DNA of 64,000 nt from an uncultured Coriobacteriaceae bacterium (GCA_900544245.1 UQUH01000003.1:145-64144), one strand, 5' to 3'; counted from the stretch's first letter, positions 12,901 to 14,366 are shown. Translations and numbers: made by a program. Notes: generated by a model from the sequence alone, not told the origin.

Positions 12901-14366
12901 GCGAGCCGGGCACCCAGCTCACGATGCGTACCTTCCACTCCGGCGGTGTCGCGGGCGAGGACATCACGCAGGGTCTTCCGCGCGTCACCGAGCTTTTCGA
13001 GGCGCGCAAGCCCAAGGGCCTTGCCATCTTGGCCGAAATCTCCGGTACGCTGCAGATTTCCGCGACCAAGGACAGCCGCACGCTCACCATCCACAACGAG
13101 GACGGCGAGGTGCGCGAGTACCAGACGGGCGCACGCGCACAGCTCATGCCGGGCGTTTCCGACATGTGCACCGTCGAGGTCGGCCAGCAGTTGACCAAGG
13201 GCTCCATCGATCCGCATGAGCTCCTGCGCCTCACCGACGTCAACACGACGCTGCGCTACATCGTCGACCAGGTCCAGGACGTCTACACGTCCCAGGGCGT
13301 CGACATCAACGACAAGCACGTCGAGGTCATCGCGCGCCAGATGCTGCGCAAGGTGACGGTCACCGATCCGGGCAGCTCCAGGTTCCTGCCGGGCGCCCAG
13401 GTCAATCGCTACGAGTTCGAGGAAGAGGTCGACCGCATCATGCTCGAGGGAGGCGACGTGCCCACGGCGCGCCCGCTCATCCTCGGCATCACCAAGGCGG
13501 CGTTGGCCACCGACTCGTTCCTGTCCGCCGCCTCCTTCCAGGAGACCACCAAGGTGCTGACCGATGCCGCAATCGAGGGCAAGGTCGACAAGCTCCAGGG
13601 CCTCAAGGAAAACGTCATCATCGGCAAGCCCATCCCCGCGGGCACCGGCCTGAAGCGCTACCGCGACCTGCAGCTCACCTACAAGGGCGAGCGCATCGAC
13701 CGCAGCGGTTCGAACAGCGACCGCCTGCCCGACTGGGCACCCGAGGAGCTCCGCGAAACCGAGAGCCTGCTGCCGCAGCCGCAGGAGTGGGCGCTCAACG
13801 GCGAGGAGTACCTGGGTGGTGCACCGGGCGACATGGCGATGTTCCTCAACGGCGGCTTCCTCGGCGGCCGTGGACCGCAACTCGCGCCCGAGCTCGCCAA
13901 GCTCTACCTCTTCGACGACCTGGGCGTCAGCCAGCGTTGGGCCAACAAGTTCAGCGAGGCGGGCATCGAGATGGTCGGCGATCTGGTCGGCAAGACCGAA
14001 GACGAGCTGTTCCGCATCGAGGGCATCGGCGTCAAGGCGATCGAGGAGCTCAGGGCCGGACTCGAAGCACGGGACCTTCTCTACATCCTCGACGACCCCA
14101 AGAAGAGCGACGAGCCGGATGCTTCGCAGCTGCTCGAGATGCTGTTCTCGCCGGAGGACGCCATGTACATGGGCGCAGAGGTTCCCCAGTCCTACAGCGC
14201 CGATCCCGACGATTTCATCGGCACGGCTCCGCAGCGTCACTCGTCTTCCGACGAGGCCGTTCTCAACGAGTTGCTCGGCGGTCTGGCCGACTCCGGATTC
14301 GGCATCACGGACGAGGAATCCGAGAAGCTGGAGAACGCGCAGGACGACGACGGCCTCATCGGCTAA
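9948..14366 (+). CDS. rpoC: DNA-directed RNA polymerase subunit beta-prime, with a ~240-aa C-terminal extension
   Basis: 1472 aa. Zn-binding CxC..CxxC near the N-terminus, catalytic NADFDGD, and trigger-loop and IPAGTG motifs. Starts 3 nt after the rpoB stop. Confidence 0.98.

Follow-up and report, generated by a model that had tools for sequence, protein, structure and literature searches.

The C-terminal domain (CTD) of the RNA polymerase alpha subunit is the classic tethered module for reading UP elements and contacting activators. In Escherichia coli, the linker that carries it is roughly 15-20 residues long, and to our knowledge mechanistic models all assume two copies of the domain, both of them on alpha. 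Here, we describe an addition to this scheme in rpoC, the gene for the beta-prime subunit, on a 64,000-nucleotide stretch of DNA ('the window') from a gut-type actinobacterium of the class Coriobacteriia, an uncultured Coriobacteriaceae bacterium (GCA_900544245.1 UQUH01000003.1:145-64144). This RpoC is extended at its C-terminus by a tail of about 230 residues, and within the tail lies a domain of predicted alpha-CTD fold. The beta-prime/alpha-CTD tail is real and class-wide in Coriobacteriia. It represents a lineage-wide, database-visible and apparently unstudied variant of RNA polymerase, and is not categorically new.

The closest described system is the alpha-CTD itself (Pfam family PF03118; PDB 1lb2, 3n97 and 1z3e). 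The RpoC domain shares with it the predicted fold, the Pfam family, the equivalents of E. coli R265, N268, G296 and K298, and attachment through a flexible linker. It differs in being mounted on the C-terminus of beta-prime rather than on the alpha N-terminal domain, in occurring once per enzyme, and in its linker, which at about 75 residues is longer than that of E. coli alpha. It differs further in sequence (C269 is replaced by K, S299 by A, S266 by an invariant W and E261 by G), in being about 40% identical to any RpoA CTD, and in being followed by about 95 more residues, comprising a conserved motif and an acidic end. The RNA polymerase of Francisella (PDB 6wmp, chains A and B, 'alpha 1' and 'alpha 2', both among our PDB matches) likewise has alpha-CTD-type modules that are not all identical; there, two rpoA paralogues supply two modules, whereas here a third module sits on another subunit. 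Two other comparisons are looser. The acidic CTD of the Firmicutes delta subunit (RpoE) is, like the RpoC tail and the RpoB tail described below, a long disordered acidic segment, a likeness of composition only; delta forms a small subunit by itself, and its N-terminal domain is folded. The C-terminal extension of eukaryotic Rpb1 (the Pol II CTD) is similarly a flexible end of the largest subunit and a possible tethered recruitment platform, by analogy only; the RpoC tail lacks a heptad repeat and is unrelated to it in sequence and evolution, and its payload is a folded helix-hairpin-helix domain.

Long-form beta-prime subunits are already represented in databases. The NCBIfam equivalog model NF011498 (PRK14906.1) has the same architecture, and the RpoC of the window is a member of this family: its residues 1-1460 match model positions 1-1454 of 1459 (2635.4 bits against a cut-off of 1437), and the tail alone corresponds to positions 1237-1454. 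Since the model covers the long form end to end, the architecture has already been recognised by annotation resources. The title of PRK14906 in CDD is presumably 'beta-prime/alpha domain fusion protein', and NCBI names fragments at contig ends 'RNA polymerase subunit alpha C-terminal domain-containing protein'. The NF011498 record gives the product name alone, and states no function for the tail. A full-text search, with most subscription journals outside its coverage, returned no paper on the beta-prime/alpha-CTD fusion or on the function of the tail. A 2024 survey of domain insertions in beta and beta-prime (PMC11515920) does not mention the CTD, helix-hairpin-helix domains or Coriobacteriia, and PMC5121209 mentions no genus of this class.

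A domain of alpha-CTD fold at the end of RpoC

The body of the protein is that of an ordinary beta-prime subunit. It matches TIGR02386 (the rpoC equivalog) over residues 12-1239 with 1740.5 bits, against a cut-off of 963.5, and Rpb1 domains 1-5 are all present. The best PDB relatives of this core are the beta-prime subunits of Streptomyces and Mycobacterium, whose alignment to RpoC is limited to residues 4-1243 and whose chains end about 44 residues further on; residues 1236-1243 (KRYRDLQL) retain a likeness to the beta-prime subunits of others. The original prediction, made from the DNA sequence of the window, held that about 237 codons follow the conserved IPAGTGL motif and that other beta-prime subunits end soon after it. 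The first figure is exact in the open reading frame (ORF), counted from base 13652, and the solved chains agree with the second statement. Because these chains end soon after the core, the extension is specific to the Coriobacteriia branch of Actinomycetota.

The same prediction placed within this extension, at 13905-14085, a module that aligns to the CTD of the genome's own RpoA, with about 20 of 51 positions identical by hand count. Computation bears this out, with small adjustments: RpoC residues 1322-1377 (13911-14078, ending in EARDL) align without gaps to the RpoA peptide at 33062-33220 (ending in SMDL) with 21 identities in 53 positions, and BLASTP of the tail against this RpoA gives 27 of 69 identical residues (E 3e-9). 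PF03118 (RNA_pol_A_CTD) matches the whole of RpoC at residues 1323-1373 with 33.0 bits (E 5e-8), which is above the gathering score of 23.8; the prediction had named failure of this profile search, or of a structural match, as grounds for refutation, and neither occurred. On the tail alone the score is 34.8 bits, spanning positions 16-66 of the 67 in the profile, and a precomputed PF03118 match is present in all but one of the 120 tail homologues listed. The generic helix-hairpin-helix family PF14520 (HHH_5) scores 12.9-16.7 bits, under its gathering score of 27; by these profile scores the domain is better described as an alpha-CTD than as a generic helix-hairpin-helix.

Searches of the PDB and structural comparisons concur. 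A phmmer search of all PDB sequences with the tail retrieved alpha subunits only (50 distinct sequences, best E 1e-5), and a profile built from 16 tail homologues retrieved 46 sequences, every one an alpha subunit (best E 7e-8); no solved beta-prime chain matching the tail was among the PDB sequences in these searches. AlphaFold2, run on the tail with a 40-sequence alignment, yields a structure, predicted rather than solved, in which confidence (predicted local distance difference test, pLDDT) is 92-96 at tail residues about 81-150 (RpoC about 1316-1385) and 48-81 elsewhere. When this model was compared with the PDB using Foldseek, the top 50 matches were alpha-CTDs without exception. Entries that contain the isolated domain (1z3e_B, 7vpd_S, 9dvt_A and 5tw1_T) gave target-normalised template-modelling (TM) scores of 0.82-0.85 over 51-65 residues, with root-mean-square deviations of 1.4-1.7 A (e.g. 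0.82 and 1.7 A for 1z3e_B, 0.85 and 1.4 A for 7vpd_S, 0.85 and 1.5 A for 9dvt_A), so that the confidently predicted domain does superpose on the alpha-CTD. The matches include DNA-bound alpha-CTDs (1lb2, 3n4m, 3n97 and 9zum) and solved alpha-CTD complexes with Spx, CAP, RpaA, ToxR and anti-termination factors. The resemblance of the RpoC domain to the alpha-CTD is far beyond chance.

The long RpoC is not an RpoA: its CTD-like domain is unattached to an alpha N-terminal dimerisation domain. The Pfam domains RNA_pol_L and RNA_pol_A_bac are absent from the protein, which has the five Rpb1 domains instead, and RpoA equivalog models score 17-28 bits on full-length RpoC, below their cut-offs of 228-523. 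The window's RpoA, for its part, keeps its own CTD, as predicted; it is complete, at 97.5 bits, and has all six residues that contact DNA in E. coli. For this reason, the enzyme would carry three modules of alpha-CTD fold.

The tail of RpoC consists, in order, of a linker of about 75 residues that includes a short motif, the alpha-CTD-fold domain, a second short motif and an acidic end (Table 1). The domain is by far the best-conserved segment: whole tails are only about 50% identical, and the domain has 34-43 invariant columns, with 29 residues invariant or nearly so across tails. In alignments of homologues, the linker varies in both length and sequence. Its motif has invariant positions (in tail numbering, in alignments A1 and A2) at L25, A29, P30, L33, E37, L40, P41 and W46, and a short helix is predicted at tail residues 31-37. 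In the second motif, F165, S166 and P167 are invariant and D156 and L160 nearly so in alignment A2, while S158, Q159 and L161 are nearly invariant in A1; a helix is predicted at tail residues 157-165, with pLDDT of about 60. From residue 1378 to the end, RpoC has 24 D/E and 4 K/R, and the tails of homologues close in similar acidic stretches with motifs of the EELLG or DDLLG type.

Table 1. Location of the features discussed; positions are those of the window except in the last row
Feature	Position	Strand	Basis
rpoC, long-form beta-prime subunit	9948..14366	+	single ORF, 1472 residues plus stop; five Rpb1 Pfam domains plus PF03118
Canonical beta-prime core, residues 1-1243	9948..13676	+	alignment to solved Streptomyces/Mycobacterium beta-prime, residues 4-1243; TIGR02386, residues 12-1239
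IPAGTGL motif, residues 1229-1235	13632-13652	+	in beta-prime core
Linker, about 75 residues (1244-1318), mostly low-confidence/disordered	13677..13901	+	AlphaFold pLDDT 49-81 at tail residues 1-78
Linear motif in linker, residues 1260-1281 (22 residues)	13725..13790	+	conserved in alignments A1/A2
Alpha-CTD-like helix-hairpin-helix domain, residues 1319-1377	13902..14078	+	PF03118; AlphaFold pLDDT 92-96; Foldseek
Post-domain motif, residues 1393-1404 (12 residues)	14124..14159	+	alignments A1/A2; predicted helix
Acidic low-complexity C-terminal end, residues 1405-1472, last letters DDDGLIG	14160..14363	+	composition
rpoA, own CTD intact at about 33026-33208	32294..33235	+	Pfam RNA_pol_A_bac, RNA_pol_L, RNA_pol_A_CTD (97.5 bits)
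RpoB acidic C-terminal tail, residues 1105-1275 (rpoB 6117..9944)	9429..9941	+	composition; outside the original prediction
Second-type fusion P0182	L082:3001-7659 and L083:884-5542		

The start of rpoA in Table 1 calls for a remark. The mechanical ORF begins at an ATG at 32168 (355 residues); the true start is likely the ATG at 32294 (313 residues), because homology to E. coli RpoA begins at MTEFMKPN. The 42 codons upstream of this likely start overlap the 3' end of rpsD (31654..32247).

Continuity, distribution and age of the fusion

Extensions of this kind can be suspected of being artefacts: a separate downstream gene joined to rpoC by an error of sequencing or assembly, or else a recent duplication of the 3' end of the genome's own rpoA. 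The leads in this direction were a caution in the original prediction, that a fusion error might lie near 13650-13900, and the likeness to the genome's own RpoA; we found no support for either. For a check of the frame, 80 related loci were taken from species-representative genomes. The motif LY.xD[DE]LGVSQRW is in-frame with the beta-prime core at every locus with sufficient DNA upstream, about 45 loci in as many independent genomes, with unbroken stop-to-stop frames of 1456-1532 codons. The exact 1472-residue protein belongs to a 90%-identity cluster of 288 members, and those listed are 1472-1474 residues long and come from contigs of up to 1.3 Mb. The curated hidden Markov model NF011498, with its 1459 positions, spans the whole protein. 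Finally, the tail is like the core in G+C content (0.658 versus 0.633) and in G+C content at third codon positions (0.873 versus 0.877). Together, these findings rule out a frameshift, an assembly chimera and a recent foreign origin.

Recent duplication fares no better. Its own RpoA CTD (40.8 bits, 40% identity) and that of E. coli (40.0 bits, 38%) are equally distant from the domain, which rules out recent copying from the resident rpoA and makes the fusion old. The match to the genome's own RpoA is thus real, as originally noticed, but it is not special. We regard an origin of the extension by error or by recent duplication as vanishingly improbable. The RpoC domain is an old subfamily of PF03118 that has evolved separately and can be told by its 'RW' pair.

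When one genome was scanned for each species, relatives of the tail turned up in at least 423 of these genomes. Coriobacteriia make up the best 80, save for a handful of bins that are labelled otherwise, and these 80 include Eggerthella, Gordonibacter, Adlercreutzia, Senegalimassilia, Slackia, Olsenella, Denitrobacterium, Enteroscipio, Raoultibacter and Cryptobacterium, as well as many uncultured bins. Bins labelled Eubacterium sp. CAG:786, Bacteroidaceae and Acutalibacteraceae, also within these 80, have the same architecture; we take the bins without a Coriobacteriia label to be mis-binned. The nearest matches among those listed are bins named 'uncultured Coriobacteriia bacterium', at 94-95% identity. 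Viral contigs were also scanned for the tail, and among 22 pattern matches there was no confirmed relative.

A second type of fusion exists. P0182 is a full-length beta-prime of 1552 residues, in which the alpha-CTD-like domain comes after the shared linker motif and occupies the extreme C-terminus, without the post-domain region. It also has a larger insertion in Rpb1 domain 1. The fragments P0180, P0158 and P0167 have the linker motif and the C-terminal domain arranged in the same way. The best solved relatives of P0182 are actinobacterial beta-prime chains, and on this ground we place this deeper-branching form as Actinomycetota-like; a homologue search with its type of tail returned a single match.

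Relatives of the domain in other proteins

An exhaustive profile search returned 1451 representatives at E <= 1e-3, comprising fragments of RpoC and a variety of other architectures. Some proteins are tandem arrays of PF03118, with 6-12 copies each (P0126, P0137, P0139, P0140, P0150 and P0157); we know of no description of such arrays. Others are restriction-like proteins with Mrr, ResIII and Helicase_C domains, and 3-4 copies of PF03118 at the C-terminus (P0199, P0238 and P0251). Still others join the domain with sigma-70 region 4. Because copies occur in defence proteins, helicases and array proteins, the module is evidently portable, and it tends to travel with proteins that act on DNA.

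The closest relatives outside RpoC are P0162 (1090 residues, L084:6001-9273) and P0203 (1022 residues, L085:6001-9069; also L086 and L087), in both of which the module is N-terminal and a sigma-70 region 4 helix-turn-helix lies mid-protein. Residues 73-169 of P0162 are 52-61% identical to the RpoC tails of Eggerthellaceae, and this similarity includes about 25 residues upstream of the domain. The first 41 residues match the ELDALLG...GFG motif that occurs at the end of those tails, so that the order of the parts is permuted. The gene for P0162 is preceded by PAPS_reduct, DUF4007, a BrxC/PglY-like ATPase and a cysteine desulfurase. That for P0203 has a WYL regulator on one side and, on the other, a Dnd-associated protein, an AAA_15 ATPase and a PLD helicase; the element to which it belongs has a relaxase and ParAB. 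A PADLOC scan of the two proteins gave weak partial matches only, to PglW and MzaA, by way of the sigma-70 region 4 segment. The setting of both is thus one of DNA-phosphorothioation-type or defence neighbourhoods, and the module in P0162 and P0203 looks like a domain captured from the rpoC of a host by a mobile defence gene.

Within the window, a further candidate alpha-CTD locus at 45301-45402 (- strand) was rejected. The weak match there is to the generic helix-hairpin-helix of a DinB/Pol IV gene (44761..46005). This DinB/Pol IV-like gene, on the - strand, adjoins a gene on the + strand (41221-44766) for a protein of 1181 residues, which by its sequence motifs only has the look of a UvrD/AddA-type helicase-nuclease. 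Neither is related to the RpoC tail.

Surfaces of the domain and possible roles of the tail

The residues of the E. coli alpha-CTD that contact UP-element DNA, as established by alanine scanning and by the structure of the CAP-alphaCTD-DNA complex, are R265, N268, C269, G296, K298 and S299. We aligned the RpoC domain to E. coli RpoA from NC_000913.3, and checked the numbering on these six. Four of the six are kept, compared with all six in the window's own RpoA: R265 corresponds to R1330, N268 to N1333, G296 to G1361 and K298 to K1363, each identical and invariant in the tail family. The other two are substituted, C269 by K1334 and S299 by A1364. Substitutions also occur at S266 (W1331, a tryptophan that is invariant in the tail family), E261 (G1326), V287 (D1352) and N294 (G1359). 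The DNA-contact surface thus appears to be largely, but not fully, kept, and the determinants used for protein contact in E. coli are not.

We put at roughly 0.5 the probability that the beta-prime module works as the alpha-CTD does, that is, as a tethered DNA binder that makes a third promoter-flanking contact and possibly serves for the docking of regulators. An extra contact with DNA or activators, as the original prediction proposed, is plausible in view of the conserved DNA-contact residues, and of the company that the domain keeps in other proteins. The identity of the domain, its predicted fold, its conservation, its continuity with rpoC and its four kept DNA-contact residues are shown here; we infer DNA binding, the module's landing place on DNA or polymerase, and any effect on transcription. 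The scheme would be as follows. The beta-prime subunit of this Coriobacteriia polymerase gained its C-terminal extension anciently and has kept it stably. Each core enzyme would therefore have, besides the pair of alpha-CTD-fold modules on the alpha dimer, a third on beta-prime. The surface formed by R1330, N1333, G1361 and K1363 would bind the minor groove and backbone of DNA in a largely sequence-tolerant way, and so would add a contact to promoter-flanking DNA, and possibly a docking site for regulators, with a reach much longer than that of the alpha-CTD. The beta-prime C-terminus is near omega, is exposed at the surface and accepts tags. With about 75 disordered residues, the linker could stretch across much of the enzyme and, as it is both long and predicted to be flexible, the reach of the module would not be limiting.

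Several features weigh against this assignment. The equivalent of S299 is an alanine, and in alanine scans of E. coli S299A lowers binding to the UP element; N294 and E261 are both replaced by glycine. The invariant W1331, which is not found in RpoA and lies beside the key arginine, could mark a different ligand. The domain is net negative (13 D/E versus 7 K/R), with acidic segments on its flanks, and this charge could work against the binding of DNA, or gate it. Docking to protein is suggested by the pair of conserved linear motifs, and the DNA-contact explanation does not account for it.

Some of these features would be better explained if the module were mainly a hub for protein-protein interaction, one that recruits or senses a transcription factor, sigma region 4, or an elongation or termination factor, with the two motifs as extra docking sites. 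The partners of the alpha-CTD include CAP, Spx, region 4 of sigma70 and NusA, and the complexes with Spx, CAP, RpaA, ToxR and anti-termination factors among the structural matches fit such a role. So do the invariance of W1331 and the conservation of two short motifs outside the domain. The transfer of the whole module into a defence-locus protein, together with about 25 upstream residues and ELDALLG, fits a shared host partner. Yet the best-conserved positions of the domain are those of the DNA-contact determinant, and not those of the E. coli 261 or 287 determinants of protein contact, where E261 has become G and V287 has become D. We consider a hub of this kind, the main rival to the DNA-contact explanation, possible, though on the unlikely side.

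The acidic end of RpoC has a counterpart in the neighbouring subunit. The C-terminal tail of RpoB (Table 1) has 171 residues, of which 58 are D/E and one is K/R, and it contains four repeats of the form [DE][DEG]-hydrophobic-hydrophobic-G (DDLLG, DELIG, EGLIG and EELIG). Motifs like these also occur at the end of the RpoC tail (DDDGLIG) and in its homologues (EELLG, DDLLG). At 16 other Coriobacteriia loci, RpoB has acidic tails of 60-207 residues, and the RpoB tail is a companion extension specific to the lineage. As a regulatory or self-inhibitory appendage, by analogy with the acidic tail of the Firmicutes delta subunit, the acidic tails of beta-prime and RpoB might mimic nucleic acid, and so vie with DNA or RNA for access to the polymerase or the domain; they would then tune promoter selectivity, recycling, or association with the nucleoid during elongation. 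The charge of both tails (58 D/E versus 1 K/R in RpoB, 24 versus 4 in RpoC 1378-1472), their like motifs and the presence of acidic RpoB tails across Coriobacteriia all speak for this analogy. Its basis, however, is composition; conservation is poor in the acidic parts, in sequence as well as in length, while the folded domain is nearly invariant, and the need for an alpha-CTD fold is left unexplained. We think it unlikely as the principal role of the tail, and note that it is compatible with, and not exclusive of, the DNA-contact explanation.

A more elaborate proposal would combine these elements. Coriobacteriia would have, built into beta-prime, a third reader of promoter DNA or activators, gated by a long tether and by acidic tails that include the one on RpoB, a self-contained regulatory appendage not present in model polymerases. 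Mobile DNA-phosphorothioation defence proteins would have copied the module in order to reach the same target, whether DNA at the transcribing polymerase or a host factor. As a whole, we hold this to be doubtful.

The importance of the fusion is limited, because database models already capture the architecture and because its function is one that we infer. Nonetheless, a third and divergent copy of this module, on another subunit and on a much longer tether, is found throughout a class of bacteria that counts Eggerthella, Gordonibacter, Adlercreutzia, Slackia and Olsenella among its medically relevant gut genera. The RpoC tail is in this sense a natural experiment on how tether length and point of attachment bear on alpha-CTD function. 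If the module does bind DNA or regulators, promoter architecture and the geometry of activation in these organisms may differ from the paradigms of E. coli, Bacillus and Mycobacterium, and promoter prediction and heterologous expression in Coriobacteriia would have to allow for a third module.

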